Part shown: in pieces, positions 31,445-46,220 of the stretch
Numbering within the stretch: position 1 is the first letter of the stretch
How the letters are laid out: each line of letters opens with the position of its first letter
Assembly: GCA_021828195.1 (NCBI GenBank)
Contig: JAKASQ010000001.1
Span: 169,202 to 233,201 of the forward strand
Source of the DNA: Thermoplasmata archaeon
GTDB taxonomy: Archaea; Thermoplasmatota; Thermoplasmata; Lutacidiplasmatales; UBA184
Direction: 5' to 3'
DNA: 64,000 nucleotides
Notes under the pieces: model-generated
Databases searched by the model: none
What the model saw: the letters and a program-made list of their open reading frames with translations, nothing else
Told to the model about the DNA's origin: nothing
Made by a program: the position numbers and the translations under genes

Positions 31445-33300
31445 TTGGAGACCGGGGGCGATTTCACCTCAGAAACGGTGTAAGGGGTACACGGTCAATT
31501 AGGGACGAATCGAGCCAGTCCTAACGCCTTCACGACCGCGGTCTGCTCGCGGTCCAGCTTCTGGAGCACCACCTTCATCTTCTTCGAGCCCGGGCGCGCC
31601 ATCGCCACCACCTGGATCCGATCCAGTCGACTCGCCAACTGACCGATCGGGATCGTTCCCTTCGTGGCGACCTCCACCCGCCGCTGGATCCACCGGTAGA
31701 ACAGCAACCCCACCACGCACAGGAACGCGTGCACCCGGATCCGTTTGTCCAGCCGGTGGAAGATCGGCATCACCGGCATCAGCAGCACGTCCTTCAGGAC
31801 GTGGAACTCCTCCTCCATCCCCGAGCGGGCGAAGTAGGTCCGCACGATCTGTTCGTCACTCCAGTCGACCCGGTCCGTGAAGACCACCGTCTTCCCAAAC
31901 CCCTCCTTCAGCTCCGCCTCGTGCTTCGCCTCGACCCATCCCGTCACCGTGAACTTGGGCGGGTCGTGGTCGAGCGTCGCCCCGACCCGATATTTGAACA
32001 CCCCCCGCCACTTCGGCGGTAGGGCATCCTCGATCCGCTCCGTCACGCTCTGCACGGTCGAGCGACGACCGCGGTGGGGCTTCGACATCTTCTCTGCCAC
32101 GCTCTGGCACGTCGCGAGGAACCGCTCCTTCGCCCGCTCGTAGTCCCTCGCCTGCCGCTTCCGAGCGCTCTCGTTGAACGCCACCACCACGACCCCGTCC
32201 ACCCCGAGCACCCGCCGCTTCGACCGGAACCCGTGGATTGCCTCCTCCTGCTCGGTCGTGTAGAGCGTTCGGTATGCGGTCCGGGGTTTCGCGAGGAGGT
32301 CCCGCACCTGGTTCCGTTTCAGTGAGGAGAGGAAGTGCACCTGCGCCGCTCGGATCGACTCCAGCCCGTCCTCGGAGTTCACTCCCTTGTCGAAGACGAA
32401 GGTGAGCTCCTCCGCCACCGCGCCGAACTTCCTCAACTGCTCGACCATCGTCCCGACCACCTCCTGAAACAGCCGCGCGTCGTTCTCGTTCCCGGGGTAG
32501 ATTCGGTGGTAGACCGGCAGATGCTGCTCGGTCACCGCCATGGCGAGCCCGACCAGCTTCGCCTGAAGGTTCCCGTCCTTCGCGTGGCCCGGACGAGGCA
32601 GAAGTCGGTCGGGGTCGTCCTCGTCGGGCTGCTGCTCGGTCGAGAAGTTCGTGGGATCGAAGAAGACGAGCGAGGGGCGGTGTCCCTTGCGGACCAGCTC
32701 CTCGCCGAGACGGAGGGTGATCTGCTCCACCACGTCGTCGGTCAGGAGGTCCATGCGCTCGAGGTAGCGACGGCAGGAGAGGGAGGGGAGGTCGGGAACG
32801 AACCGGAAGAGGGACCGGTGCGCCCACTCTGCCATCCCGTTCTTCGAAACCGGCTCGTGAGCACGTCCGGCGATGAAGGCGAGGAGACTCAGCGCGGTGG
32901 CCCGACTGCCCGTGAGTTCCTCGACGACCCTCGAGAAACCGAGCTCGGCGTCCGCGGCCAGGAACGCCGCGCTGGTGCCGAAGGGATAGGGGAGGAACTC
33001 GATCCCTTCAGCGAAGGCGTCCGGGTTCGTCAGGCGCTGGACGAGTTCCTCCTGGGTGCCGAGGTACATCTCGGCGACATTGACGACCTTGCCGTCACGG
33101 CGAGCCTTCTGGACGAGGTAGACGTAGGTGTGGGGGCCGCGTCGGCGAAAGCGGAACTGCACGCGTGCGATAATACCCCCAACATAATGAACATGTCGGT
33201 CGTTCTGCCGATATCACACTGCCCCATTGTCTAATTGATCCTGATGCCCCCAACTCCCTTCTGAGGTGGATCGGGCCTTACCGCCAAAGTGAGGTCTGGG
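31445..33300 (-). mobile_element. IS element, IS1634/IS4-like, with imperfect terminal inverted repeats
   Basis: Left end ...GATTTCACCTCAGAAACGGTGTAAGGGGTACACGGTCAATTAGGG. Reverse complement of right end is ...GATCCACCTCAGAAGGGAGTTGGGGGCATCAGGATCAATTAGACAATGGGG. Encloses a single transposase gene. Confidence 0.6.
31495..33162 (-). CDS. IS1634/IS4-family DDE transposase
   Basis: 555 aa; FVFDKGVNSEDGL..., C-terminal HVLKDVLLMPVMPIFHRLDKRIRVHAFLCVVGLLFYRWIQRRV typical of IS1634-type transposases. Confidence 0.75.
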   Translation of the reverse strand: MQFRFRRRGPHTYVYLVQKARRDGKVVNVAEMYLGTQEELVQRLTNPDAFAEGIEFLPYPFGTSAAFLAADAELGFSRVVEELTGSRATALSLLAFIAGRAHEPVSKNGMAEWAHRSLFRFVPDLPSLSCRRYLERMDLLTDDVVEQITLRLGEELVRKGHRPSLVFFDPTNFSTEQQPDEDDPDRLLPRPGHAKDGNLQAKLVGLAMAVTEQHLPVYHRIYPGNENDARLFQEVVGTMVEQLRKFGAVAEELTFVFDKGVNSEDGLESIRAAQVHFLSSLKRNQVRDLLAKPRTAYRTLYTTEQEEAIHGFRSKRRVLGVDGVVVVAFNESARKRQARDYERAKERFLATCQSVAEKMSKPHRGRRSTVQSVTERIEDALPPKWRGVFKYRVGATLDHDPPKFTVTGWVEAKHEAELKEGFGKTVVFTDRVDWSDEQIVRTYFARSGMEEEFHVLKDVLLMPVMPIFHRLDKRIRVHAFLCVVGLLFYRWIQRRVEVATKGTIPIGQLASRLDRIQVVAMARPGSKKMKVVLQKLDREQTAVVKALGLARFVPN

Positions 33301-33316
33301 AGGCGGACTGAGTCGG

Positions 33317-33778
33317 GTGGGGGCCGTGGTCTTCGCCCTGGTCGTGTACCTGCTCTACAACCTGGTCTATGCCGGGGTCAGCTTCCCGGTGGGGCGACTC
33401 GCGGATCGACGGCCGGGGGTCGGGCTGGTCGCGGCCAGCTATCTCCTGTTCCTCCCGGTGGACGTTCTTCTCATTCTCGAAAGCGGGATCGCCGGAGCCG
33501 TCGCCCTGATGGTCGGGGCCGGCCTCCAGATAGCCCTCCTCGACGTGGTCGAATCTACTTGGATATCCCGAGCGGTGCCGCGGGAGTTGACGGCCACGGC
33601 GTTCGGGTGGTTCGGCGTTCTCCGGGGTCTCGGGACCCTCGTAGGCTCCATCCTTGTCGGGGCGATCTGGGAGTATGTCTCTGTCTCCCTGGCGTTCGCG
33701 GTCTCGGCCGTGTTCGTGGTCGCAGCGACCGCTATCCTGCTCCTGAAGGTGAGGAGCACTGACGCCTCACTCTCGTGA
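33317..33778 (+). pseudogene. C-terminal fragment of an MFS transporter abutting IS right end
   Basis: Six TM helices (GRLADRRPG loop motif) without an N-terminal half; starts 17 nt after IS terminus. Confidence 0.45.
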
Positions 33779-34028
33779 GTGCGGCTCCGCGGGAAGTCGC
33801 GGCTTGGCCGTTCAATTCGGCGTCCACCGAAATCCGGAATCGAGACAGGCGAACGAGTCCCTCCATTCCATCGTGTTTCCATGGCCGGACCCACCCGAAC
33901 CGTGACCTAAGCCCACCCCCGGAATCCGCCCGTGTTGGCGTCTCAGTGTCCGAGGGGGTGCGATCGAACGGCTGCTTTTCGACAGGGTTGACTCTTCGAG
34001 CCTCTTGAGACGGGCCCGGGCCGCTCCG

Positions 34029-34535
34029 TTACCTCGCCCGGCCGCCTGCGATGAGGAGACTCAGAAAGGCCAGGGTGAACGCGAGCAGGAAGCCCACCGA
34101 CATCCCGTACGAGAAGGCGTTGTTCTGCCCGGAGAATAGAAACTCCATGCCGCTGATTCCCGCGCCCAGTACGGCGGCAAACGTTCCCCCGGTCGTGGCG
34201 AGGAGTAGTGTGTTTCGGGAGAGCGCGGATGCCGCGAAGGTGAGAAGGGCGAGGACGCCCAGGACCATGCCGGTGAGCATGTGGGCCATTACGGCCCCCA
34301 TTCCCGGTAGGAACATCAGCTGCATCATTCCGTACATCCCAAGAATGGGCGACGGAAGCGTTACATACAGGTTGACGAACATTCCCAGCACGAATTGGAG
34401 GGCCAACAAACCGAGCTCCACCGACACTAGGGCGACGAGAATCGGGTGACGGGTCCTCGCGACTCTGGGGGCTTCGCGCGTCGTGACGCGGATCGAATCG
34501 ACAGCAGCCGGCGGCATGGAGGAGAGCCTCGTCAT
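34029..34535 (-). CDS. Hypothetical polytopic membrane protein (Met/Gly-rich TM helices)
   Basis: Hydrophobic segments throughout; divergent from first paralog gene; no family recognised. Confidence 0.35.
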   Translation of the reverse strand: MTRLSSMPPAAVDSIRVTTREAPRVARTRHPILVALVSVELGLLALQFVLGMFVNLYVTLPSPILGMYGMMQLMFLPGMGAVMAHMLTGMVLGVLALLTFAASALSRNTLLLATTGGTFAAVLGAGISGMEFLFSGQNNAFSYGMSVGFLLAFTLAFLSLLIAGGRAR

Positions 34536-34644
34536 GGGGGAACGCCACACAGGCCTTAGACTTAACTCGGGACAACCCCAGTCCGCAGGCGGGCAGGCTT
34601 CTTCTCCTCTGACGACCTGTCGCCACCGGCGGTCTGGCTCCGGA

Positions 34645-35391
34645 ATGTCAGGACTGTTCGTACCGGCCGAGTTCGCCGCGATGTTCATGGCCGTCGTGGC
34701 GGTCGTTCTCGGGGTACTGTTCGCGTTTCCGACGACGTTTCGGCTGCGGTCTCCGGGAAGGCGTGTGGCCTTCCTCCGCCTCCTGGTTGGGACGGTCCTA
34801 GCCGTGGATGCGACTCTCCAGTTTCTGCCCGGAGCTTCCCCACAGGTGGCTTACCTGCTCGTGGTCGGAGCCGGTCAGGAACAGCCTGCGCTCTCCGGGT
34901 GGTTCTCGTACTGGGCCAGCGTCATCGCCGGAGACCCCGGATTCTGGTGGTATGGAACGGGAATCCTCATGGCGTGCCTCGCCACCTGCCTGATACTCGG
35001 AGTCGCCCGCAGGCTGGCGTATGTCACGGGGTCCTTCTTCGGCCTGTTGCTTTGGGCGATCCCGAACGGGTTCGGCGGTCCCTACGTCGCCCCCCACACC
35101 GACGTCGGCGCCGGCCTGCTTTACGCCCTCCTGTTCCTGTTCCTCCTCCAGATGGATTCGGTATCGGGCCCGGTCCGTCTTGCCGGCGACGTCATGCTCG
35201 AACGCAGGTGGCCGAAATGGCGAGTGCTCGGCGGCAGGTCATTTCGCCCGCTGCCGCCGCCCGAATCCTACGAGCGACGAGTGACCCGTGATCTATCCGC
35301 GGAGGACTACGTGCCGTCCCCGGATCCTTGCTTGACCGAAGACGCACCCAAGACGCTCGGTCCGCCACCGCAACTCGGGTCGAACCGATGA
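34645..35391 (+). CDS. Paralogous 4-5 TM membrane protein, copy 1 (FGGPY family; possibly DoxX/DoxD-like)
   Basis: LRLLVG..W..DA.LKFLP, WWYGTG, LWAIPNGFGGPYVAPHTDVGAGLLYALLFL conserved blocks shared with six other ORFs in the window. Confidence 0.6.
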   Translation: MSGLFVPAEFAAMFMAVVAVVLGVLFAFPTTFRLRSPGRRVAFLRLLVGTVLAVDATLQFLPGASPQVAYLLVVGAGQEQPALSGWFSYWASVIAGDPGFWWYGTGILMACLATCLILGVARRLAYVTGSFFGLLLWAIPNGFGGPYVAPHTDVGAGLLYALLFLFLLQMDSVSGPVRLAGDVMLERRWPKWRVLGGRSFRPLPPPESYERRVTRDLSAEDYVPSPDPCLTEDAPKTLGPPPQLGSNR

Positions 35392-35508
35392 TCGAGTCGT
35401 CGCTTCCGCGGGAAGGTGTCGCCGTTGTGGAGCGAGGCACGAAGCCGTGCGCCCTGAAGAGTGCAGAGGGTTCCACACCCGCCGAACGGGAATGGGAGTG
35501 ACCGACGA

Positions 35509-36246
35509 ATGAACGATATCGCCCTGGCCTTCGAGGTGGCCGTCCTGCTGTTCGTCGGCGTGACGGTGGGAGTCGCTTTGGCGGCTGCCGTGGGAGGACG
35601 GCTCCGAACGATCCTCACCCCGTCGGTTCGCACGACGGTACTTCGAATCTTGTTCGGGGCGGTCTGGATCGCGGATGGCCTGCTCCGCTTCGTTCCCGGG
35701 ACCTACGCGCAGCTTTCGTACTGGCAGGTCGTCATGATCGAGGACGGTCAGCCGCCTTGGCTTCTTGGTTGGCTCACTTTCTGGGCGGGCATCATCGCGG
35801 GTACTCCGGCCTTGTGGTGGTACGGGTTTGGGCTGATCGAGCTCGCGCTCGGCTTCTGCCTGTTCACGGGGTTCCTGCGCCGACCCATCTACCTTGTCGG
35901 TCTGGCCGTCAGCATCCTCCTCTGGACGGTCCCCCAAGCTTTCGGAGGACCCTACGGTCCCGGAAGCACCGACATGGGCACGGGGATCCTCTATGCCGTA
36001 ATCTTCCTCGCCTTACTCCATCTCGACTCGATTTCGGGACCGCCCCGGTTCACGCTCGACACGACCGTGGGACGGCAGTGGCCGGCGTGGCAACGGCTGG
36101 TCCAAGCCCGGGTCCCGACGCAGCCAGCCGCTGCACCGCGGGAATCCAGCGTCAGCCTCGGACGGTCAGCTGACCGTACATCCCTGATTGAGCGTGGCCC
36201 GGCATCATACAGAGATACCAGAACGTCCCCGGGCCCGCGAAGCTGA
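35509..36246 (+). CDS. Paralogous 4-5 TM membrane protein, copy 2
   Basis: LWTVPQAFGGPYGPGSTDMGTGILYAVIFLALLHLDS; same block order. Confidence 0.6.
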   Translation: MNDIALAFEVAVLLFVGVTVGVALAAAVGGRLRTILTPSVRTTVLRILFGAVWIADGLLRFVPGTYAQLSYWQVVMIEDGQPPWLLGWLTFWAGIIAGTPALWWYGFGLIELALGFCLFTGFLRRPIYLVGLAVSILLWTVPQAFGGPYGPGSTDMGTGILYAVIFLALLHLDSISGPPRFTLDTTVGRQWPAWQRLVQARVPTQPAAAPRESSVSLGRSADRTSLIERGPASYRDTRTSPGPRS

Positions 36247-36874
36247 GCGTGGCAGCGGTAGTCTCGTAGACCGGGTTGGCACTCGTTGCCGTCATTCCAT
36301 CGACCATCATCGACCCCACGGAAAGCCAGCAGCCGCTCCCGTCACCCATTCCCATCATCCCTCCCCCGCTCATCATCGGCATGTACGGATATGGCGGCGG
36401 CTGGGTTGTCAGGGCGAAGTCGTGGGACTCGTTGTCCATGTTGATGAATTCGAACCGCACCGGCTCTCCCGACGGCACGGAGACCTGCGGGTTCACGAGT
36501 CCGTAGCTCAGGAAGTAGTTCCCGGAGTGAGGATACCACACGGGCGCCCCCTCGACGAGCAACGTCGCCCCGGGGGCAGTGACCGTGATCGAGTTCATCG
36601 CCGGAGTTTCGCTGACCCCGGGGGGCAATGAGTTTTCTTCGGTGAACGTCTGATTGTTGATCGTTGAGACCGTCGGGTCGTGCTGAGCGACCGAGGAGCA
36701 TCCCGCCGGAGCCAGTGCCGGCTTCTCGACGATCATATAGGCAAAGGCAATCCCCGCGAGACCGACGAGGATCGCCACCACCAGAACGACGACCACGGGC
36801 CCGAGAGGACGACCCGGAGGGTGCCGGCCGGGCGCCGACGAGTCGATCGTGACATTCTCCGTGCCGGCCGTCAT
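36152..36874 (-). CDS. Membrane-anchored cupredoxin (type-1 copper site) with Met-rich segment
   Basis: N-terminal TM anchor; ESHDFAL (His1) ... FWYLCMMPGHAQSGMYGQLTV = C-x2-P-G-H-x3-G-M type-1 Cu ligands; PPYPYMPMMSGGGMMGMGDGSGCW Met-rich motif. Confidence 0.65.
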   Translation of the reverse strand: MTAGTENVTIDSSAPGRHPPGRPLGPVVVVLVVAILVGLAGIAFAYMIVEKPALAPAGCSSVAQHDPTVSTINNQTFTEENSLPPGVSETPAMNSITVTAPGATLLVEGAPVWYPHSGNYFLSYGLVNPQVSVPSGEPVRFEFINMDNESHDFALTTQPPPYPYMPMMSGGGMMGMGDGSGCWLSVGSMMVDGMTATSANPVYETTAATLSFAGPGTFWYLCMMPGHAQSGMYGQLTVRG

Positions 36875-37515
36875 GGGTTCTGCTGGCCCGGAGGAGTTGC
36901 TGGGACCTCATCAGGTCTGCGAGAGACCCTCTCCGAACGGCGGAATACCGAAGTAGAGACCTCCGCCCAGCGGGCCCAGCCCGGCCAACTGCGCTCGATC
37001 CAGCCGTCGACGGTCCCCACCTTCGCGGATGGGTCGGCGTCGAGCACCAACAGGAACAGGAATGCGATCGCGTAAATGACACCCACTCCCACGTCAAAAG
37101 TGCCGACGTCGTAAGGGCCCCCGAACCCATTGGGAACCGCCCAAATGAACAAGCTCAGGCCCATCCCCCCGAGGTAGGCTGTCTTTCTCAAGAGTCCCAG
37201 GGTGAGCGAAACGCACAACGCGAGCTCGAGAAAAGTGACGACCCCCACGTCCATTGCCGCGTATTGCTGGGATTGGACGACCCAGAAGGCATACCAGCCG
37301 GAGAGCCAGGAAGGCTGGCCGATGCTCGCGGCGAGAACGCTCTCGGAGAACCAGAACGGAGTCTGCGGGAAGAACGCGAGCGCGGCATCGATTCCCCAGA
37401 CGAATCCGAAGATCATACGGGCTGACCGACGAACCGCTCCGCGATGGCGGAGGATCCACCCCTCACCATGCTCCGCGACGCCGATCATCGCAGGATGTCT
37501 CCCTCGGGATTGCAA
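36871..37515 (-). CDS. Paralogous membrane protein, copy 3 (lacks first TM helix), co-oriented and overlapping with cupredoxin gene
   Basis: IFGFVWGIDAALAFFPQ...WAVPNGFGGPYDVGTFDVGVGVIYAIAFLFLL; 4-nt overlap with downstream cupredoxin. Confidence 0.55.
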   Translation of the reverse strand: MQSRGRHPAMIGVAEHGEGWILRHRGAVRRSARMIFGFVWGIDAALAFFPQTPFWFSESVLAASIGQPSWLSGWYAFWVVQSQQYAAMDVGVVTFLELALCVSLTLGLLRKTAYLGGMGLSLFIWAVPNGFGGPYDVGTFDVGVGVIYAIAFLFLLVLDADPSAKVGTVDGWIERSWPGWARWAEVSTSVFRRSERVSRRPDEVPATPPGQQNP

Positions 37516-37716
37516 CCACTCATCCCGCTACTTGTGGGGGCCGTATGAACCGCGGGGGCGGCGCCCGTCGTGTCCTCTGTTGGCACTTGTCGATGCGGCC
37601 GTCCAAGAGCCCGACCGTTCGGTGGGAGAATCCGTCCGTCGACTACTGGTGACCCAACACCTCGTTCCCGTCCGTTGCCCGCTCGCAGTCAATCTTTATA
37701 CCAGCCGTCCGGGTAG

Positions 37717-38577
37717 GTGCGACGCATGACCGACTGGGAGCGCGTCGAACAGCTTCGCGCCGACGGGGTCAGTTGGGACAAGGTAGCCAGTGATCGGAAG
37801 GCCGGTTTCCACCCCCCTCCGGGCGCCGACGCCGGCCGCGCCCTGCGGACTCTCTATTTCCAGCGTCGCTCCCGGAGCAGCCGTTCGGGGCCCCAAACTC
37901 CAGGAGGTTCCGAGCGCCGGGGAGACCGGGCCGGCAGAGGCGGACCGAAGCGATTGCGCTCGATCATAATCGGCGGTTCCGCCGTCACCGTGCTGATACT
38001 GGTGATCTACCTCATCCTCACGTCGGGTGTTCTCTTCGGGGGTCCGCCGAAGCCAGGAACCAACCCGGGTCCGGGGGCAGCTGGGACTCTTGCGGAGTTC
38101 AACTACCTCAGCCAACAATCCACCGACGCGTGTGTGTGGACGGGAGTCAACCTCGGCGATGAAACGTCGTACGTCAACTGGATCAACGGATTGGCGGATA
38201 ACACCTACATCCAAGGCTCGTGTTGTAGCCCGATGGATTTCACCCCCGACTATTCGTCCCAGATTCCCGGCCTCACGAGTTACGCCTCGATCTCCCTCAT
38301 CCCACCGGATCCCTACAATGTGGTCGCGCACACGGCGAAAGCCGATGTCGCCCATGCCGGTGACGCGCTCACCTCGAGCCAGCAATCCGTCTTCAACACG
38401 GCGGCGAGCAACACGAACGACAACGGCTGGTGCTGCTGCCAGTGCTGGGCCTACTACGCTCATGAGGGCCTGGCGAAGGCCCTGATCGTGCAGTACGGCT
38501 ACACTGCCCAGCAGGTGGACACGGTCATCAACCTCGAAGACTGCTGCGGCGGGCCCGGCCCGATGAACATGCCGTAA
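37717..38577 (+). CDS. TM-anchored Cys-rich protein of unknown function (CC, CCCxC, CC motifs)
   Basis: Basic cytoplasmic N-term, one TM helix (IIIGGSAVTVLILVIYLILTSGVLF), then extracytoplasmic Pro/Gly/Asn-rich domain containing GSCCSPMDF, NGWCCCQCWAYYAHEG, LEDCCGGPGPMNMP. Confidence 0.5.
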   Translation: MRRMTDWERVEQLRADGVSWDKVASDRKAGFHPPPGADAGRALRTLYFQRRSRSSRSGPQTPGGSERRGDRAGRGGPKRLRSIIIGGSAVTVLILVIYLILTSGVLFGGPPKPGTNPGPGAAGTLAEFNYLSQQSTDACVWTGVNLGDETSYVNWINGLADNTYIQGSCCSPMDFTPDYSSQIPGLTSYASISLIPPDPYNVVAHTAKADVAHAGDALTSSQQSVFNTAASNTNDNGWCCCQCWAYYAHEGLAKALIVQYGYTAQQVDTVINLEDCCGGPGPMNMP

Positions 38578-38622
38578 CCTCCCGGGGTCGCCCTGCCCCT
38601 CCTCGGAAGGTCGCAAGGAACC

Positions 38623-39213
38623 GTGTCGACCGCGGGTGTTCGGGACCGAACCCTGCCGACGTGGTTCTTCCACAATCCGCTTCGACGGTGGTTCAAGAAG
38701 CCGGGCCGCCTGATTGACTTCTGCCCGCCAAGGTCGGGGGACGTGGTCGCGGATCTTGGTGCCGGAGGCGGGTTTTTCCTGGCAGAGCTAAGTCGAAGAG
38801 TCGGGTCAGCGGGACGGATCTACGCCGTCGATATCGACGACGGCGCCCTGTCGTTGGCGCAGCGGGTCGCCACCACCTTGGAGGTGACGGACCGGGTGGA
38901 GTTCATCCATTCCTCCGCAGCTTCGGTGCCATCCATCCCTTCCGGCGGTGTGGATTACATCCTTTCGAACGGGCTCCTTTGTTGCCTGATCGACAAGGAG
39001 CGAGCGATGGAGGAGATGTGGCGAATCCTCAAGCCGGGTGGCCGTGCCTTGGTGACCTTCGTAACGATTGGTCCGCGCTTTACCGCCCGCGGTAGGGCCC
39101 TGCGGACATCGGAGCGGAGATTCCGCGAGTTGCTTTCGAGACGTTCGTGGGAGGTAATCCCAGGCAAAGCCAAGCCGTTCTCGCGGCGGTTCATCTTGAG
39201 GAAGTTCGGTTGA
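38623..39213 (+). CDS. Class I SAM-dependent methyltransferase
   Basis: VVADLGAGGGFF motif I, IYAVDIDD post-I, DYILSNGLLCCL motif II, LKPGGRALV motif III. Confidence 0.65.
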   Translation: MSTAGVRDRTLPTWFFHNPLRRWFKKPGRLIDFCPPRSGDVVADLGAGGGFFLAELSRRVGSAGRIYAVDIDDGALSLAQRVATTLEVTDRVEFIHSSAASVPSIPSGGVDYILSNGLLCCLIDKERAMEEMWRILKPGGRALVTFVTIGPRFTARGRALRTSERRFRELLSRRSWEVIPGKAKPFSRRFILRKFG

Positions 39214-39626
39214 CCCCCGTTGATAAGAAACCGGATGGACAAGGTCCGGCGCCGTCGCCATCGAACTCGGTCTCGGACCGCGGCTGCGTCAATCGGCAGT
39301 TCATCCGCAGTCGACTACTCTACAGGGAGGGCCGCCGACACTCCGGAGCGTACCGCTCAGCATCCGCAGGATCTCGAAGTAGGGGAGCGATGTGAGCGGT
39401 TCGCGCCGACCACGAGGGCCTCAACTCTGGGCTGACGGACCCGGTGAGGGCGTGCGCGATCCGCTGCACTCTTTCCCGGCGCCAATCTCCTGAGCGCCGT
39501 CGACCTGCGTGCCGTTCCGACGTGGTCAGCGAATGGGTTCGAGGCGGCCGCGGATTCCCGCCTCCAGAGTCGATTCTCGTGGACCGCGACGTCGAAGGAT
39601 GCGAACGCGACTGGAGGTCGGACCCT

Positions 39627-40217
39627 TCATTGCCGAGGCGCCGCCAGCCAGCGCGACAACCTTGAGAATCTCGCGCGTCCGGTCGCCCAGATCCAGTGGT
39701 CGACGGCCACGTACTTCCCAGCTCCTCCGGTGAAGAGAATCAGATAGATCAACAGGTAGAGCGGATGCGGTCCCACGTCGGTACCACCGGGAATCTGAAA
39801 CGTGCTCAGGAATTGGGTCGCGAGGAAGATGACAGAGGCTAGCCCGCCCACAATGCACGCCAAACGGGTGGTGACCCCGAGAACAAAGGCGATGGCGAGG
39901 TAGGCCGTGAGGAGGGCGGTCATCCATGCAAACGCGGTCGCATGGGCCGCAACAAAATTCGCGACACTGGGGCCTCCAAGACTCGTAGGTGCAAAGGAGA
40001 GCACAGTCTCCCGGAATGTGGGGAAGAACTGATTGGCCGGATCCACGATGAAGATCATGTTCAGGACCCAGACGAGGCCTACCCCCACGCGAAGAAGGTC
40101 GATGGACATCCCCTTTGGGTCGGATTGCCACAAGTCACGCAGGTGTCCGTACCAGGTCCGCCCGGACGGCCCGACGGAAGGGGATTCGGACTTGTTCTCG
40201 TCCCGACGGTTCACCAT
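39627..40217 (-). CDS. Divergent paralog of the FGGPY membrane family, copy 4
   Basis: TFQIPGGTDVGPHPLYLLIYLILF corresponds to FGGPY..TDxGxGxLYAxxFL block; downstream of second cupredoxin-like gene on same strand. Confidence 0.45.
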   Translation of the reverse strand: MVNRRDENKSESPSVGPSGRTWYGHLRDLWQSDPKGMSIDLLRVGVGLVWVLNMIFIVDPANQFFPTFRETVLSFAPTSLGGPSVANFVAAHATAFAWMTALLTAYLAIAFVLGVTTRLACIVGGLASVIFLATQFLSTFQIPGGTDVGPHPLYLLIYLILFTGGAGKYVAVDHWIWATGRARFSRLSRWLAAPRQ

Positions 40218-40360
40218 TCCACCGCTGGACGACTTGACAAGCGAAAACCCCTTGGGTCGACGTCCGACCAGCGTAGCGCTCTCTGTTCAACTACCGGTGA
40301 GTGAGGGCCGGGTGCTCGCGACCGAGTCTCGGCGCACCTTCGTGTCGCTTCGGTACAAAG

Positions 40361-40930
40361 CTACGAGACGGTCATCGTGCCGCTCATGTACCCGGGAGTG
40401 CTCATTGGTCCCCCCGTGAATCCCCCCGGGCCGGTTCCGCATGGCGACATGCAGAACCACGAGAACGTCCCGGCGTTGGTGACGTCGACTGTGAACGACA
40501 CGACGCTCTGCCCCGGACTCAGAACGTTCAAGCCGAACGCTGGAATCGAGAACGTGTGCGCGACATTGGAGATCGGGACCGTGCTGTACGGCGTGCCGTT
40601 GATCGTCTCCACTCCGTTAACGGTCCCCTTTACGGCACACGGGCACCCCGTCCACTCCGCGACGGCGTCGTGATCGGTGATCGTAAAGGCGACCTTTCCC
40701 TGGGGGACGTCAAAGCTCGTGGGGGAATACTGGGGCCAGCCGGTCGTGGTGTTGAACGAGACCGTGAGGTTGACGTACGACGTCTGACCCGAGGTCGACG
40801 TGGTCGTCGCCGGACCTGCGGCACTGGGAAACGTCACCAGCAAGACACCCGCCGAAACCACGACGGCAATTGCCAACACGCCTGCGACGGCGTTGAAGTA
40901 ATCCTGATCCTTCATCGTTCTTCCCTCCAC
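40361..40930 (-). CDS. Secreted/anchored cupredoxin-like protein with atypical Cys motif
   Basis: Signal/TM anchor, Thr/Ser-rich linker (GPATTTSTSGQTS), beta-rich domain with AHTFSIPAFG and FSWFCMSPCGTGPGGFTGGPMSTPGYMSGTM (C-x3-C-G as in CuA, but no His-x2-Met directly after). Confidence 0.45.
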   Translation of the reverse strand: MEGRTMKDQDYFNAVAGVLAIAVVVSAGVLLVTFPSAAGPATTTSTSGQTSYVNLTVSFNTTTGWPQYSPTSFDVPQGKVAFTITDHDAVAEWTGCPCAVKGTVNGVETINGTPYSTVPISNVAHTFSIPAFGLNVLSPGQSVVSFTVDVTNAGTFSWFCMSPCGTGPGGFTGGPMSTPGYMSGTMTVS

Positions 40931-41487
40931 TTACCGGATTCCCTGAGGCGGTCCTTCGCGGAACAAGAGCGACTGTACGGGCACGTATTCTATGCCCGCG
41001 TACGGGGATAACCTCTCCCACTCGCATTCTCGGGGTTGAGAACGATGGGTCCCGAACCGGTCGACGGGACGGACCAGGACCGGTTGACCGCCATCCCCCG
41101 GGAAGGGGTCAAACCGCTGGCGAAGATGGTCCGGGTGACGTCCCTCCATTCCAGGCCCTGTGTCTCGACCTTCACCGGGCTCCCTCGTTCGGCAGTTCCC
41201 GCCGGCAAAGGCGCCCTCCATCGCAGTCGAGAGCTCGAATGTCTCCGGGACCACTAAAGGCGGGTGAGCGACCTGGGCACTCCGGGTTGGCTCCCAACCC
41301 AGGACTTTCGACGCACGTCCACGGTTCACTCTCTGACGAGAAACGGACCCGGAGGTCGCGCCGTAAGTGCTGGTCTCGTTCCCATAGCGTCAGTCTCTGT
41401 GAGCGGATCGTTGTTGAAGAGGCGCCCCGTTGGTCAGGGGGGCCCGGGGACGGGTGGTGGGGACGCCCGTTCGGAGTAGCCCGCAAG

Positions 41488-42384
41488 TCAGTGCGGCTGA
41501 CCTCCGCAAGTGCAATCGGGAGCTTCCACCTGGATCGTCACATGTCGTATCCGAAAACGCTGGCGGACGATGTCCTGGGCGACGTGAGTCACGTGATCGT
41601 CTTTGGGTTCCGCCTCGAGCACTAGGTGGACGCTCATCGCCTCCGAGCCGGAAGTGAGCGTCCAGACGTGGAGGTCGTGGACCGCCCGCACGCCCGGGAG
41701 GTCGCTCAACGAGTTTTCGACCTCTGCCGGGTTGATGTGCGTCGGCGTCCCCTCGAGCAAGATAGTGAGCGTGTCCCGGGAAAGCCGGAAGGCGAAGACC
41801 CCAATCAGCGCCGCGACGAAGAGGGTCGCCACAGGGTCCGCAATCTCAATCCCTCCAAATAGGATCAGGGCCCCGGCGACCACTGCGCTGAGTGAACCGA
41901 GCACGTCAGAGAGGATGTGCAGGTACGCCGCGCGAATGTTGATGTTCAATCGGCCTCGGACGCGGAGGACGCGGGCGATGGCGAGATTGGCGACCAGGGA
42001 GAGCGCGCCCACGACCAGCACGACCGGACCATGAACGGGCGCGGGTGTTCGGAAGCGCAGGTATCCCTCGACGACGAAGAGGGCGGCCAAACCCCAGAGG
42101 ATGAGGGCATTCGCAAACGCGGCGACTACCTCGCCCCGGCCGTGGCCGAACGAGTGGGCCGAGTCGGCCGGTCGGCTCGCCCAAGTGACAGCAAGGAGCG
42201 CGAGCCCTAGGGCGGCCAGGTCGGTGAGGTAGTGACCGGCATCCGCCAATAGGACGAGGGAGTTGGCCGCGAACCCACCGATGAGCTCTATCACCATGAT
42301 TACCGACCCGGCGGCGACTACCCAGAGGAGTTGCCGCCGATTTTCCCGGGCGAAGGCGCGAAGGTGCTCGGATTCGTTGCCCAT
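41488..42384 (-). CDS. Cation diffusion facilitator (CDF) family metal efflux transporter
   Basis: LLADAGHYLTDL, HSFGHGR, HILSDVLGS motifs; C-terminal cytoplasmic domain ending in CTCGGQPH; start at MGNESEHLR. Confidence 0.85.
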   Translation of the reverse strand: MGNESEHLRAFARENRRQLLWVVAAGSVIMVIELIGGFAANSLVLLADAGHYLTDLAALGLALLAVTWASRPADSAHSFGHGRGEVVAAFANALILWGLAALFVVEGYLRFRTPAPVHGPVVLVVGALSLVANLAIARVLRVRGRLNINIRAAYLHILSDVLGSLSAVVAGALILFGGIEIADPVATLFVAALIGVFAFRLSRDTLTILLEGTPTHINPAEVENSLSDLPGVRAVHDLHVWTLTSGSEAMSVHLVLEAEPKDDHVTHVAQDIVRQRFRIRHVTIQVEAPDCTCGGQPH

Positions 42385-42720
42385 GGAATGCTGGTCGCTC
42401 CCAGTGCCGCCGAACCGCTTTAACCGAGACGGTCCGGGAGAGATCCCCTCCTCCGTGTTCAGCTTCGACCGCGATCTCTCGGTGTCATTCCTAGGCTTCC
42501 TCTCCCCCCAAGCCCACCGTTGATTCTCGGGGCCGGTCCCACGAGGGATGGGGTACAGGTCTACAGGGGTCCGCGCCGGCCCCCCAGTCAAGAGCATTGG
42601 TGAGGCCGGGGGATGGCCTCGTGCCGTCGGCACGGGAGGCGCCCGAGGAGGGGCCGTCGGAGTCCATGCGCGACTCTCTTCAGCCTCGTGGCCCTCTCCC
42701 AAGGCGGGGTTAACCGAGGG

Positions 42721-43437
42721 ATGACAGTTCTCTTCCTGCCGGCCGAGGTCCTGGCAGTTTTTGTTGCAATCTCAGCCGCTGGACTCGGCGTACTCCTCAC
42801 TGCCCCCGAGACCTTCCGCCTCCGCTCTCCGGGAGGTCGAGTTGCCTTGCTTCGAGTGCTCGTCGGCGCCCTTTGGGCCACCGATGCCACGCTCAAGTTC
42901 CTACCGAGAGCCCCTCCCGTACTCGCATATTGGCTTGTGGTCGGCGCGGGCCAGGATCAACCGGGGCTCTCTTGGTGGTTTTCATACTGGGCTGGCGCAG
43001 TTGGTGCGAATCCTGCCCTCTGGTGGTACGGCACCGGTGCGCTCGAGGCGCTCTTGGCGACTGCCCTGCTGCTCGGATTCGCCCGCCGCCTTGCATATGT
43101 TGCCGGATTCCTTCTCAGCCTCTCCCTATGGGCAATCCCAGAGGGATTTGGCGGCCCCTACCTTTCGAGCACGACCGATGTCGGCGCGGGCCTGCTTTAC
43201 GCGCTTCTGTTCTTGATGCTCCTTCAGATGGATTCCGTCTCGGGTCCGGCACGGTACGCGGTCGACGCAGCCTTGGGGCGCCGCTGGCCCAGTTGGCGCT
43301 TCATCGGAGGCGGTTCCTCCCGTGTCGTTTCGGCCCACGGCAGCGAAAGCCGCGAGCAGGCGTCCCCTCCGCTCGTGGCGGATCCGATCATCGAGGGTCG
43401 CCGGGGAGAGGTTCCCAGAGCGGGTGCAGACCGATGA
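42721..43437 (+). CDS. Paralogous membrane protein, copy 5
   Basis: LWAIPEGFGGPYLSSTTDVGAGLLYALLFLMLLQMDS; most similar to copy 1 (same block order and near-identical C-terminal motif). Confidence 0.6.
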   Translation: MTVLFLPAEVLAVFVAISAAGLGVLLTAPETFRLRSPGGRVALLRVLVGALWATDATLKFLPRAPPVLAYWLVVGAGQDQPGLSWWFSYWAGAVGANPALWWYGTGALEALLATALLLGFARRLAYVAGFLLSLSLWAIPEGFGGPYLSSTTDVGAGLLYALLFLMLLQMDSVSGPARYAVDAALGRRWPSWRFIGGGSSRVVSAHGSESREQASPPLVADPIIEGRRGEVPRAGADR

Positions 43438-43551
43438 CCCATACTCCTCGCCCTTCGGCGATCCACGTAGCCGGCCTCCCAGCTCCCGGCCCGCCCGTGC
43501 CGCTGGGGACCTCTTCGCGCCGCCGGCAAGCCAGGTTCGGGTGACAAGAAC

Positions 43552-44232
43552 ATGGGCGTAGTCGTTCTTGCGTTCGATGTTTTCCTCCTCCTGACGATGG
43601 GCACGATAGTGTCGATAGCCCTGGTGGCGGGCTTCGAGAAGGAACTGAAGACTATCTTCTCCCCGTCGGGCCGGACGGGCTTCCTACGGATTCTCTTCGG
43701 TGGGGTCTGGCTGGTTGACGGCCTGCTCAGGTTCCAAGCGGGAGCGTCCCCGCAGCTCTCCTATTGGATGGTCGTCATGGCCGGCCAGGGACAGCCCGCA
43801 TGGCTCTCGGGGTGGTATGCCTACTGGACAGGCTTCATTGGCGGCGCCCCGACATTCTGGTGGTACGGGGTCGGCTCCATCGAACTCGTGATCGCGGTCT
43901 GTCTTATCGCGGGATTCCTCCGCAAGCCGGTGTATCTCGTCGGCCTGTGTCTCAGCCTCTTCCTCTGGACGGTGCCCGAAGGTTTTGGTGGACCCTACGC
44001 TCCCGGGAGCACCGACATGGGGGCTGGAATCCTGTACGCCGTCGTGTTTCTCGCCTTGCTGCATCTCGACTCGGTTTCGAGTCCCCCCCGGTTCGCTCTC
44101 GACACGGTGATCGCGCGGCGGTGGCCGACGCGGAGACGGCACGTCCCGGCCGAAGTCTCGATTTCGGCGGTCGTCGCACAGGAGGATTCCGTACTCGCCG
44201 TCGGCTCGTCGGAAACCGGTACGTACCGGTGA
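43552..44232 (+). CDS. Paralogous membrane protein, copy 6
   Basis: LWTVPEGFGGPYAPGSTDMGAGILYAVVFLALLHLDS; most similar to copy 2. Confidence 0.6.
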   Translation: MGVVVLAFDVFLLLTMGTIVSIALVAGFEKELKTIFSPSGRTGFLRILFGGVWLVDGLLRFQAGASPQLSYWMVVMAGQGQPAWLSGWYAYWTGFIGGAPTFWWYGVGSIELVIAVCLIAGFLRKPVYLVGLCLSLFLWTVPEGFGGPYAPGSTDMGAGILYAVVFLALLHLDSVSSPPRFALDTVIARRWPTRRRHVPAEVSISAVVAQEDSVLAVGSSETGTYR

Positions 44233-44331
44233 GCCCTCCGGGCGGAGCATCCAAACCCGCCTAGGGACCCCTTGCTACCTCTGACCGCGGGTAGCCCTGG
44301 CTCAGCCACGGTTCCAGCCGGTCCCATCCCC

Positions 44332-44850
44332 TCAGCCGCCTCCCATATCCCCGTCCGCAGTCGAGCGGCGTTGCGGAACTACTTCGGCCCACCGGTCCCA
44401 GCCGGGTATCCTCCGCTCGATCCGGGCATCCAGAGTTCCCCGGCTCGAATCGTGGCTGACCTCCAGGGCCAGGAGGAGTAGGAACGCGAGGGCGTAGACG
44501 AGCCCGGTTCCGATATCGAAGCTACCGGGGACGTACGGACCGCCAAACCCCTCCGGCACGGCCCAGATGAGGAGACTGAGGGCGATGCCGCCGATGTAGG
44601 CGAGCTTCCTCAGGAACCCGGTGAACAGCGCGAACGCCAAGGCGAACTCGAGGCCGGTGACGAGGGAGACATCGAGTGCCGCGCTCGCGCTCGTCTGGTG
44701 GACCCAGAAGGCGAACCAGCTACCGAGCTAGGCCGGCTGGCCGATGCTCGCTGCCAGGACCCTCTCGGAGAACCAGAAGGGGGTCTGGGGCAGGAACTTG
44801 AGCGCCGCATCGAGCCCCCAAACGAGTCCGAAGAGTTTCCGGAGGGAGGA
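44332..44850 (-). pseudogene. Paralogous membrane protein, copy 7, disrupted by in-frame TAG (minus-strand codon at 44728-44730) and lacking a start
   Basis: By-eye translation KLFGLVWGLDAALKFLPQTPFWFSERVLAASIGQPA*LGSWFAFWV...WAVPEGFGGPYVPGSFDIGTGLVYALAFLLLL; stop replaces the conserved Trp (SIGQPSWLSGWY in copy 3). Confidence 0.55.
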
Positions 44851-45387
44851 TCGTATTTGGCCAAGGTTCCGTTCGGCCCATTCATCCTCGGATACCAAGG
44901 GACCGCTCCGACCGCGGAGACGGGGCGGGCCGCTTATACGAGCGATGTCCGAATCGGATCGCGACAGCGGTGCTTTACTGTTGACCGCCGAGAGATCGGC
45001 CGCCTTCAGGCCGTGGTGACGTGGGTCGGAGCGACCGGAGTATCAACACGACGAGAAAGGCGATGAGAAGCCCGCCGATTGCCACACCAATGAGCATGTA
45101 CACCCACATGAGGGCCGACATGGCGGGACCGGTCATGCCGAAACCCATGGCCCCACCCGCGAGGACATGTCGCACATCGCGAGCGAGATGGCCGTGGCAA
45201 TAGAAGCCTCTTGCGGAACTCACGACCAAGCTTGAGACCGGGGCCGGCCCGCGGGACTCGGGAACACGGCGATTGCCCATGGCGGAATGCAGGGCGCGCT
45301 CTTCCTTGCCTAGACTATCTCCAACCCGGGACTTGGCGAACCAGAGTGGCCTCTGCCAGCCAGCGACCCGAACACGGGGATCGAGTT

Positions 45388-45465
45388 ACATGCTCATCGC
45401 GCCGGGTCCACCGCAGCAGTCTTCAAGGACCAAGACCGCAGCCACCTGCTGGGAATCATACCCCT
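45388..45465 (-). repeat. Inverted ~78-bp copy of the 3' end of the Cys-rich gene (38521-38600), encoding ...KGYDSQQVAAVLVLEDCCGGPGAMSM* with no upstream gene body
   Basis: Direct by-eye comparison: GTTAC.CATG.TCATCG.GCCGGG.CC.CCGCAGCAGTCTTC.AGG...GACCG...CCACCTGCTGGG shared. Upstream in-frame TGA ~40 codons before stop. Confidence 0.5.
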
Positions 45466-45786
45466 TTCCGGTTCCGACCCTTGCCGGTTCGGGTAACGGA
45501 GCCTCCCTTCAGGAAGTACCAATACGAACCGCGAGTTCTTAGCGGGGGTCCCCGGTCGGTCGCCGAACGGAAATGGGGGTGAGCCGGGAAGTCCTCTTAC
45601 AATGTCCCATCCCCCGCGATTCTTGCCGTCAGGTCCCCCGGCTTCTTCGAGGTAGGGCATGAACGATCTGCTGCCCGCCCTGACCTGGCTTCACGTCTTC
45701 TCCGTGATTCCCAACGATGGCAGAGCGGGGTTTGAGAACGAGGCGTAGCTCACGACTCGTGTGATCCCGGTCTCGGATCAAACGGC

Positions 45787-46140
45787 TCAGCTGACGACTC
45801 GGATTCCTTCGCGGATGGTTTGAATGAGCTTTTCCTGCTCGGCCTTGGGCGTGTTCTCTAGAGCCTCAAGCATGTCCTCGAGAATCAGCCCGGTCGCCTT
45901 CTCGAGCGCCCCCCGAACGGCCATCAACTGGAGAAGGACGTCGGCGTACGGCTGATTCTCATCCAGCATACGAATCACGGCATCGAGATGTCCACTCGCG
46001 CGAGACATCCTACCCCGCACAGCACCTTGCAAGTGATGCTCCATACGGCCATCCCCATGCCGGGAGGGGGATTTACCCTTTTTTCCTGTCGCCCTCCTGC
46101 GCAGAAGAAGGTCAAGTTCGTTCCCTTGTCCTTCCGTCAA
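45787..46140 (-). CDS. CsoR/RcnR (DUF156)-family regulator-like protein lacking the canonical Cys/His metal ligands
   Basis: HLQGAVRGRMSRASGHLDAVIRMLDEN.PYADVLLQLMAVRGALEKATGLILEDML resembles CsoR helical core, but Ala replaces the conserved Cys (YCID position) and no HxxxC/H at C-terminus; real start may be M33 (46044). Confidence 0.45.
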   Translation of the reverse strand: MTEGQGNELDLLLRRRATGKKGKSPSRHGDGRMEHHLQGAVRGRMSRASGHLDAVIRMLDENQPYADVLLQLMAVRGALEKATGLILEDMLEALENTPKAEQEKLIQTIREGIRVVS

Positions 46141-46220
46141 TGCCTCGGCCGCATCCTGGCCCTCGGCACGATGGGTTTCCTCGGAAGTAGTTTATAGTTC
46201 ATTCGAATCCCCTGGGGGGG

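Follow-up and report, generated by a model that had tools for sequence, protein, structure and literature searches.

A stretch of 64,000 nucleotides from a Thermoplasmata archaeon (contig JAKASQ010000001.1, positions 169,202 to 233,201; hereafter the window, with coordinates counted from its first letter) contains a gene for a membrane-anchored protein whose outer part bears runs of adjacent cysteines. The question raised by this locus is what a protein with so many neighbouring thiols does in the cell envelope. Conservation across the family, gene neighbourhoods and domain fusions suggest that the protein belongs to a family that is probably a new copper-binding module.

A membrane-anchored protein with clustered cysteines

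The first-pass annotation of the window listed an open reading frame (ORF) on the plus strand from a GTG at 37717 to 38577, and this frame is present as listed. The ATG at 37726 is the likelier start because all close homologues begin with MTDW. A TATA-like box lies upstream of this ATG, in the 210-bp divergent intergenic region that the gene shares with a DoxX-like/cupredoxin operon; the hexamer TTTATA occurs three times in the window (both strands, 67% GC), and two of the three are just 5' of predicted genes. The box is a putative promoter, and its spacing to the ATG fits a leaderless archaeal mRNA, in which case the GTG at 37717 would fall 5' of the transcript. GC content in the gene is 0.78 at third codon positions (GC3) versus 0.54 at second positions (GC2), the same coding-type pattern as in other window genes. 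The gene is real rather than a chance ORF: coding-type GC3 and the TATA-like box both speak against the earlier reservation that it might not be translated. Its features, all on the plus strand, are as follows.

37695..37700 (+): TATA-like box TTTATA, 26 nt 5' of ATG 37726
37726..38577 (+): coding sequence of the cysteine-cluster protein, 283 amino acids (aa) from the ATG; the ORF opens at GTG 37717
37726..37887 (+): N-terminal cytoplasmic segment, residues 1-54; three short helices with an AlphaFold predicted local distance difference test score (pLDDT) of 82-92 over residues 1-50
37951..38022 (+): single transmembrane (TM) helix, residues 76-99 in the AlphaFold model; hydropathy peak at 80-98
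38068..38553 (+): extracytoplasmic all-alpha cysteine-cluster domain, residues 115-276, conserved
38131..38133 (+): codon of C136, an isolated invariant Cys (Cys in 283/285 homologues)
38221..38235 (+): CCSPM motif, C166-C167-S-P-M170, in GSCCSPM (Cys in 306/307 and 306/308, Met in 299/314)
38431..38445 (+): CCCxC motif, C236-C237-C238-Q-C240, in WCCCQCW (Cys in 288/289, 285/288, 286/288 and 284/286)
38461..38463 (+): codon of H246, a residue found only together with C273
38542..38547 (+): C273-C274, in EDCCGG (Cys in 266/266 at position 274; at position 273 Cys in 138 and Gly in 115)
38554..38574 (+): C-terminal tail PGPMNMP (Met-x-Met), disordered, pLDDT <50

The basic N-terminus, single TM helix and outer Cys domain described by the first-pass annotation are all present, as judged from sequence, hydropathy and the AlphaFold model. 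Its count of nine cysteines also stands, and their grouping into three clusters is only slightly off: read directly from the codons, eight are clustered and C136 is isolated. The TM helix is predicted to be a signal anchor in the N-in/C-out orientation. Between the N-terminal segment and the helix runs a basic disordered linker (residues 54-74; AlphaFold model m6a1df710d7e8). The N-terminal segment is kept in homologues P0002-P0022 and is limited to close Thermoplasmata-type relatives. A helix-turn-helix DNA-binding domain was considered for these 54 residues and rejected, on account of a 14-residue loop at the turn position and the lack of a fold match in structure comparison.

An AlphaFold2 model of residues 115-283, built on a 67-sequence alignment, has a mean pLDDT of 87.5 and a predicted template modelling score (pTM) of 0.85, and contains eight helices and a few short strands, with the last seven residues disordered. 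The CCCxC motif, which holds both a CxxC and a CCxC sub-motif, immediately precedes the longest helix (127-143 in domain-model numbering). The model places the pair C166-C167 after a short strand and the final pair after the last helix.

A widespread family with eight conserved cysteines

Of the 170 homologues returned by a search of 5.8 billion proteins, none has an informative name and none carries a Pfam domain. When 1.84 billion cluster representatives were searched with a profile, 291 clusters were retrieved at E <= 0.001 (200 at E <= 1e-10), which gives a family size of about 290 clusters at 50% identity, and a scan of one genome per species identified 88 family loci. Archaeal hosts are Thermoplasmata (93% identity in the metagenome-assembled genome (MAG) YP4.bin112), Bathyarchaeota, Nitrososphaerales, Micrarchaeota, Nanoarchaeota and Marsarchaeota. 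Bacterial hosts are many candidate phyla radiation (CPR)/Patescibacteria, Chloroflexota, Actinomycetota and Alphaproteobacteria, the last including the cultured Chelativorans intermedius and Mesorhizobium delmotii as well as a Microvirga plasmid. On RefSeq plasmids of Sinorhizobium, Ensifer and Microvirga, members are labelled 'hypothetical protein'.

Eight cysteines (C136, C166, C167, C236, C237, C238, C240 and C274) are each at least 99% conserved across 336 non-redundant sequences and are thus conserved far beyond chance. The cysteine spacing, on whose recurrence in related genomes the first-pass annotation had made its case depend, is shared by many homologues.

Two subfamilies can be told apart. 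Subfamily A comprises the window protein, proteins of acid-mine archaea and those of a few bacteria that share these habitats; they are marked by WCCCQCWAWYAH[EA]GLAK ... NLEDCCGG and end there or with a PGPMNM tail. Subfamily B comprises proteins of CPR bacteria, Alphaproteobacteria and others, with eight Cys; they are marked by PCCCKCWRWYVYGGLGK ... NLSDGCGG and a subsequent tail, for instance GDHVNH, ADHHH or EEHQHG. C273 is accompanied by H246 in 138/138 sequences and H246 occurs in none of the sequences lacking C273, so that there are no mixed cases. Members without C273/H246 frequently end in a His-x-x-His tail: at least two His lie within 15 tail residues in 60/114 of them versus 0/138 in subfamily A. 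In the latter, the tail of 44/138 members contains two or more Met. Metal-trafficking proteins typically bear flexible His or Met tails, and the binding of Cu(I) by Met is pH-independent. The apparent exchange of a Cys and His pair for a His-x-x-His tail, and of His for Met in acidophiles, would be the pattern expected of metal ligands.

Two further observations concern individual members. Bathyarchaeota-type homologues (P0034, P0035, P0039 and P0041; L008:5887-6687) have a cytoplasmic C2H2 zinc-finger-like N-terminus, CPxCG...H...H, with a match of 0.0015 to Pfam zf-H2C2_5. The same outer domain is thus borne by two different small cytoplasmic modules, zinc-finger-like in these proteins and three-helix in the window protein. 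A homologue in an Anaerolineales MAG has an in-frame TGA near the first conserved Cys (L039:6208-6210), directly followed by a 5-bp GC-rich hairpin; no Rfam match to a selenocysteine insertion sequence (SECIS) was found after it, and the TGA could be selenocysteine, a pseudogene mutation or a sequencing error.

Export of the domain

A hydrophobic segment precedes the domain in 210 of the 217 full-length family members, only 12 of which contain a loose Tat-like (twin-arginine) motif, and the alphaproteobacterial members carry ordinary signal peptides. Together with the basic N-terminus of the window protein, the hydrophobic segment indicates an extracytoplasmic domain. The domain is predicted to be exported unfolded via Sec; its cysteines would therefore form disulfides or take up metal outside the cell. 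A cytoplasmically inserted Fe-S cluster was considered and is unlikely in view of the Sec-type export and the scarcity of the loose Tat-like motif.

Gene neighbourhoods and domain fusions

Neighbouring genes were counted up to 6 kb to either side in 78 non-redundant loci, many of which are interrupted by contig ends. ORFs were called in all loci and clustered, and four families were refined with iterated hidden Markov models (HMMs). At least one copper marker (P-type ATPase, DUF411/CopG, SCO1, multicopper oxidase, cupredoxin or CsoR family) is present in 55 of the 78 loci, a raw count over these loci alone. The association with copper homeostasis genes is also seen on the plasmid pSinB and in a fusion to SCO1 (both below). 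The recurrent neighbours are as follows.

39/78 loci: DsbA-like thioredoxin, the commonest neighbour, often directly upstream
27/78 loci: TM4, an unannotated four-TM (4-TM) protein with GCxxCG in a TM helix and a C-terminal Cys
9 more loci: c11, a TM4-homologous form in subfamily A (hhalign probability 92.6%)
23/78 loci: P-type ATPase
22/78 loci: PCCDN, a second unannotated Cys domain, YRPCCDNPTAFPDCNHG
21/78 loci: c5, an unannotated single-pass protein with an HTHD motif
15/78 loci: CcdA, often directly upstream
15/78 loci: DUF411/CopG
14/78 loci: CsoR-family repressor
10/78 loci: cupredoxin, all in subfamily A
10/78 loci: BNR propeller
9/78 loci: SCO1
8/78 loci: cytochrome c
7/78 loci: multicopper oxidase
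6/78 loci: class I methyltransferase

The motif in the sixth TM helix of the neighbouring ATPases is CPH in 8, CPC in 7 and CPD in 6, often with a CPMHPE-type N-terminus. Co-occurrence with cupredoxins, which the first-pass annotation had proposed as a check, is borne out in subfamily A: of its 20 non-redundant loci, 10 contain a homologous rusticyanin-like cupredoxin no more than 6 kb away. CsoR-like genes beside ATPases in CPR loci lack the second Cys.

An extended cluster is found on pSinB, a heavy-metal resistance plasmid of Sinorhizobium/Ensifer sp. M14 (PMC6115938). Its annotated order is P-type ATPase, DsbE, TlpA, a hypothetical protein, DUF1573, two hypothetical proteins, SCO, a BNR 'sialidase', a hypothetical protein, DsbA, CcdA, the homologue of the window protein, an ICMT-family methyltransferase and a Rieske protein, followed by a CusA/CzcA pump.

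Several members are fused to other domains. In P0161 a SCO1/SenC domain (residues 53-180) precedes the cysteine-cluster domain (residues 211-360), and in P0187 and P0199 the cysteine-cluster domain is followed by a His/Met-rich YtkA-like domain. P0103 joins a PEMT/ICMT methyltransferase to the domain, and in loci L032 and L035 the 4-TM Cys protein is fused to it; at four further loci this 4-TM protein is joined to PCCDN instead. PCCDN may itself be a distant paralogue of the cysteine-cluster domain, as judged from an hhalign probability of 65% (E 6e-5) over 60 columns around LTxxQQ...PCC...C...GL.

The three unannotated partner families merit description of their own. TM4 (L037:5450-5992; c11 at L019:8330-8818) ends in a C-terminal Cys-Lys and has >1100 homologues, all hypothetical. 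PCCDN (L019:7304-8323) is a Cys domain of ~260 residues with the motifs YRPCCDNPTAFPDCNHG ... GGxxCG, sometimes fused to the 4-TM protein. The single-pass c5 (L037:6581-7111) carries the motif HxH...HTHD...H.E. No Pfam or NCBIfam model matches TM4/c11, PCCDN or c5, and all are absent from the 64-kb window. An assignment of the 4-TM partner as MerC-like, from its GCAAC motif, was rejected because neither Pfam nor NCBIfam supports it and all of its homologues are unnamed; the resemblance of GCxxCG to MerC is kept as an analogy only.

Two unrelated methyltransferase folds also recur beside the Cys protein. The class I type is found in Thermoplasmata and some Alphaproteobacteria (window 38623-39213; L089:2752-3354; L087:9568-10152), and the ICMT/PEMT membrane type on pSinB, in an acid-mine bacterium (L004) and in the fusion P0103. 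The best match of the pSinB enzyme is the thiol S-methyltransferase MddA, below cut-off. The L004 locus, which is bacterial and from an acid mine, additionally encodes MerA (L004:15062-16465; TIGR02053, 527 bits, above cut-off) 6 kb from a subfamily A homologue, and ArsR-type and MerR-family regulators within 8 kb, and thus represents a multi-metal island.

Comparison with known families

The window protein has no Pfam match (E up to 1) and matches no NCBIfam family. When 40 diverse members were compared with Pfam (E up to 10), no family was identified and the sole recurrent weak match was DUF5714. A PDB sequence profile search gave no matches at E <= 10, and a Foldseek search with the domain model gave nothing with E <4. 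The model thus appears to represent a confidently predicted fold without known relatives, and the known disulfide-rich module that the first-pass annotation had allowed for did not emerge from Pfam, NCBIfam or PDB. No description of the family was found in the literature, including full-text searches for the motifs CCCQCW, CCCKCW, GSCCSPM and CCSPMD, whose sole result was an unrelated virology paper; nor was anything relevant found that links CopG/DUF411/CsoR/DsbA with CPR.

CopG is a periplasmic copper-resistance protein of thioredoxin-like fold whose CxCC motif holds a Cys-bridged tetranuclear copper cluster. Like the present family, CopG (DUF411, PF04214) is extracytoplasmic, has adjacent-Cys motifs and occurs in copper-resistance clusters. 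However, its thioredoxin-like fold differs from the all-alpha model, and CopG co-occurs with the family as a neighbour rather than replacing it. PF04214 matches neither the window protein (E up to 1) nor any of the 40 members (E up to 10); a neighbouring gene in L060 matches it at 1.1e-20.

Cox17 is a Cu(I) chaperone of the mitochondrial intermembrane space, whose CCxC site donates copper to Sco1. It resembles the family in being helical, with CCxC next to a helix, and the family, with its CCC[QK]C, is likewise tied to SCO1 (by the P0161 fusion and as a neighbour in nine loci). Cox17 differs in having ~70 residues and twin Cx9C disulfides, versus ~160 residues and eight or nine Cys in another pattern; no homology is detectable, and the parallel is one of analogy.

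The metallothioneins and Csp proteins, with which the first-pass annotation had compared the cysteine runs, are Cys-rich Cu(I)-thiolate binders, and Csp1/Csp3 are all-alpha like the present domain. The comparison survives as an analogy only. Neither sequence nor fold matches the Cys-lined four-helix bundle of Csp, and membership of the metallothioneins is contradicted by a length of ~160 residues, a Cys content of ~5%, a confident helical fold, an export anchor and the lack of a profile match.

MerP with MerT/MerC offers another parallel, an outer Cys protein working with a Cys-bearing membrane protein, a pairing that is fused in L032 and L035. No homology was detected, however, and the context of the present family is mainly copper rather than mercury. 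The P-C-x-C-x-C pattern of PF13798 (PCYCGC/CYCXC) is matched by the bacterial motif PCCCKC, but over this short motif only, and none of the 40 members matches PF13798 at E up to 10. The members of PF13798 are lipoproteins that are exported and contain several conserved Cys; their function is unknown (PMC13068155). DUF5714 (PF18978) gives weak matches over the CCCxC region in 4 of the 40 members (best E 0.002), with P0195 reaching 16 bits against a gathering threshold of 26.2 bits; a distant relationship may exist. Both PF13798 and DUF5714 are without known function, so that belonging to either would supply no mechanism. A thioredoxin fold of the Dsb/TlpA/SCO kind is likewise not indicated: the domain has no thioredoxin-type Pfam match and is modelled with eight helices and short strands only, and the SCO1 match in P0161 is confined to the separate N-terminal domain.

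A probable role in envelope copper handling

Binding of a soft metal, most likely copper, is suggested because the family combines invariant adjacent thiols, a His/Met ligand pattern, Sec export, copper-type neighbours and a SCO1 fusion. The window itself provides a context of two cupredoxins, a cation diffusion facilitator (CDF) exporter and a CsoR-family gene. On balance we favour the view that the protein is a Sec-exported chaperone or buffer of the cell envelope that would bind Cu(I) or another soft metal through thiolates. The idea of a Cu(I) or metal-thiolate site, which the first-pass annotation had drawn from the cysteine runs, therefore gains from context, fusions and the ligand-like residue pattern, with metallothioneins and Csp proteins serving as analogies only. 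The analysis shows the gene and its family, the invariance of the cysteines, signals for a location outside the cytoplasm, a predicted fold without known relatives, the copper-type neighbourhood and the fusions; metal binding and the identity, stoichiometry and direction of transfer of the metal are inferred.

In the proposed mechanism, reduced thiolates of the ~160-residue all-alpha domain would be the ligands of Cu(I) and perhaps of further soft metals. The site might be a small polynuclear Cu-thiolate cluster, comparable to the sites of CopG or Cox17, and among known systems the protein would function most like CopG, Cox17 or MerP. Auxiliary ligands would be C273, H246 and the Met-x-Met tail in the acid-mine archaeal type and the His-x-x-His tail in the bacterial type. 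The protein would buffer copper in the cell envelope or hand it over, possibly in partnership with P-type ATPase exporters and, where present, the Cys-bearing 4-TM protein. Outer cuproproteins could be further partners, namely the adjacent cupredoxin in this archaeon and SCO1, multicopper oxidase and CopG elsewhere, and the redox state of the cysteines would be set by DsbA and by CcdA/TlpA-type proteins.

Several points weigh against this reading. The eight Cys of the bacterial subfamily are an even number and are compatible with four disulfides, and the commonest neighbour, DsbA, is an oxidant. The coupling of C273 and H246 divides two clades and so may reflect one or a few evolutionary events. 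The nearby CsoR-family genes lack the canonical Cys-His-Cys set and are no proof of copper regulation. Some loci are multi-metal islands (with MerA in L004 and CDF or resistance-nodulation-division (RND) pumps elsewhere), so that a metal other than copper could be involved. It would also be chemically surprising for an acidophile in oxidising, iron-rich water to expose free thiols on its surface.

A bolder form of the copper-binding proposal, which we regard as tentative, is that the new fold assembles a polynuclear Cu(I)-thiolate cluster outside the cell and forms the soluble arm of an unrecognised copper-trafficking system made up of unannotated families throughout. Its members would be the cysteine-cluster domain, TM4/c11, PCCDN (YRPCCDNPTAFPDCNHG, YRPCCDN...CNHG) and the HTHD single-pass protein c5. 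Such a system would occur widely among CPR bacteria and DPANN/acid-mine archaea, and could do the job of Cox17-Sco or MerP-MerT, with the recurrent methyltransferase adding a further step.

Alternative functions

The main alternative, which we consider unlikely, is an extracytoplasmic thiol-disulfide oxidoreductase or redox relay in which the CxxC within CCCxC cycles between thiol and disulfide. Such a protein could repair copper-damaged envelope proteins, reduce Cu(II), or reduce SCO1 or CopG, with electrons arriving via CcdA or the 4-TM Cys protein. It would account for the DsbA-like and CcdA genes that so often lie directly upstream (39/78 and 15/78 loci), for the fusion to the 4-TM protein, which has a C-terminal Cys and an intramembrane GCxxCG, and for the position of CCCxC at a helix start; the domain also bears a weak resemblance to the periplasmic domain of CcmH, a three-helix CxxC thiol-disulfide oxidoreductase. 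The in-frame TGA of L039, if it encodes selenocysteine, would point the same way, but it has no SECIS match and is possibly a pseudogene mutation or sequencing error. A relay, however, needs two or at most four Cys rather than eight invariant ones that include CC and CCC runs, the His/Met tails and the C273/H246 switch look like ligands, and the domain has no thioredoxin fold or Dsb-family signature. Moreover, thiol-disulfide genes are normal companions of copper systems, since SCO and CopG need reduced Cys.

A less probable alternative, proposed by analogy with the transfer from MerP to MerT, is that the domain binds another soft metal or metalloid (Hg(II), Ag(I), Cd(II) or As(III)) and acts with a methyltransferase or a MerT/MerC-like partner. 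The recurrence of methyltransferases of two unrelated folds favours it, the class I type being found in the window, beside an intact paralogue and at four bacterial loci. The best NCBIfam matches of the class I enzyme are arsenite methyltransferase models and that of the pSinB enzyme is MddA, all below cut-off; L004 adds MerA, a MerR-family gene and ArsR. Against this, mer or ars genes are far rarer than the copper-specific SCO1, DUF411, multicopper oxidase, cupredoxin and CPH-type ATPases, and the 4-TM protein has no Pfam MerC or MerT signature. The class I methyltransferase, which has no signal or TM segment, is therefore cytoplasmic, while the Cys domain lies outside. ICMT-like genes are passengers of czc/ncc metal clusters with no defined role.

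Least likely is a disulfide-stabilised structural or sensor domain devoid of metal or redox chemistry, the Thermoplasmata form of which might signal through its small cytoplasmic N-terminal domain: extracytoplasmic proteins often use disulfides, DsbA is the commonest neighbour, the Cys count of the bacterial subfamily is even, the three-helix N-terminus is confidently modelled in the close relatives of the window protein and the zinc-finger-like N-terminus of the Bathyarchaeota type would suit a one-component transmembrane regulator, but most members lack any cytoplasmic domain, the nine Cys of subfamily A leave at least one unpaired, CC and CCC runs are a poor disulfide architecture, no known disulfide-rich module or DNA-binding fold (the latter for the N-terminal domain) is matched, and fusions are to copper proteins and not to signalling modules.

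A metal-related island and a truncated paralogue

In the window, the cysteine-cluster gene is surrounded by the following features.

31495-33162: insertion sequence (IS)-type DDE transposase, 555 aa, which together with a 153-aa major facilitator superfamily (MFS) transporter fragment marks the island edge (31495-33778)
35461-36246 (+): DoxX-like paralogue
36152..36874 (-): membrane-anchored type-1 cupredoxin, rusticyanin/sulfocyanin-like, with Met-rich loop YPYMPMMSGGGMMGMG (TIGR03095 2.6e-23, below cut-off; SoxE 1.1e-6)
36871..37515 (-): DoxX-like multi-pass membrane protein, divergent from the cysteine-cluster gene, with a 4-nt overlap with the cupredoxin gene
38623..39213 (+): class I S-adenosylmethionine (SAM)-dependent methyltransferase, 46 nt 3' of the cysteine-cluster gene (Pfam Methyltransf_31 1.4e-18)
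39627-40217 (-): DoxX-like paralogue
40361..40930 (-): second cupredoxin-like protein, weakly CuA/CoxB-like (Cupredoxin_1 0.017, CoxB 4.8e-4)
41488..42702 (-): CDF metal efflux protein (Pfam Cation_efflux 1.6e-40, ZT_dimer 1.5e-12)
43552-44232 (+): DoxX-like paralogue
44332-44640 (-): DoxX-like fragment
45386..45466 (-): 3' end of a truncated paralogue of the cysteine-cluster gene, 25 codons (45389-45463) and stop (HMM match E 1.9e-4)
45787..46140 (-): CsoR/RcnR-family repressor, on the same strand as and upstream of the truncated copy (Pfam Trns_repr_metal 1.5e-14)

The methyltransferase, whose NCBIfam matches to ArsM and UbiE are all below cut-offs, is probably in one operon with the cysteine-cluster gene, and the same pairing occurs with the intact paralogue described below and in bacterial loci. 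The CsoR/RcnR-family protein contains no Cys at all and is therefore not a canonical Cu(I) sensor of the Cys-His-Cys type. Five paralogous DoxX-like genes, one of them a fragment, lie within 10 kb and two are paired with cupredoxin genes; their DoxX profile matches are weak (0.001 for 43552-44232 and 0.098 for 39627-40217), as is that to HvfX, and the proteins may be partners of the cupredoxins linked to quinone. No RNA family was identified when 33000-47000 was scanned with Rfam.

The order cupredoxin, membrane protein, cysteine-cluster protein and methyltransferase is kept in near-identical relatives (two Thermoplasmata MAG assemblies). That the loci of close relatives are flanked by ISL3 and DDE transposases, a resolvase, a DNA methylase and a primase-polymerase suggests a mobile island.

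The first-pass annotation also noted a decayed second copy of the 3' end of the gene. The copy exists, but it is a truncated paralogue rather than a decayed repeat. It encodes GYDSQQVAAVLVLEDCCGGPGAMSM, which is 68% identical to residues 258-282 of the window protein (tblastn E 1.5e-6, within the window), and its 25 residues recur unchanged at the C-terminus of P0015, an intact paralogue of 279 aa that is 57% identical to the window protein. Along 45466 down to 44823 of the window, the contig carrying P0015, from the 'HuN_forest' sample, is 99.1% identical at the nucleotide level (L089:4383-5027). The match ends sharply at 45466, and a breakpoint at 45466/45467 therefore lies inside the paralogue gene; in place of the window sequence past it, the other contig has, in order, a YHS-domain P-type ATPase, a class I methyltransferase and P0015. 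The second copy was therefore cut recently at this point by deletion or rearrangement, and the breakpoint constitutes a recent structural difference between closely related populations. Since P0015 lies beside a class I methyltransferase, the pair of methyltransferase and Cys protein is present twice in this lineage.

Implications

How the envelope handles copper is well known for model bacteria but has hardly been worked out for CPR bacteria, DPANN archaea and acid-mine Thermoplasmata, which combine high metal loads with tiny genomes. The present family shows the most extreme Cys clustering within its gene clusters and is spread widely across these poorly understood lineages. It probably represents a new family and fold that performs a job of a known type. 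Its commonest partners are equally unannotated, and the family, if it binds copper, would provide a handle on three co-located families. Cultured, genetically tractable carriers are available in Sinorhizobium sp. M14, S. meliloti GR4, Mesorhizobium delmotii and Chelativorans intermedius. If the domain does bind copper, it would bring a new metal-site architecture to the few periplasmic copper chaperones known, and could explain how exported cupredoxins, SCO proteins and multicopper oxidases gain or release copper in organisms without known chaperones.

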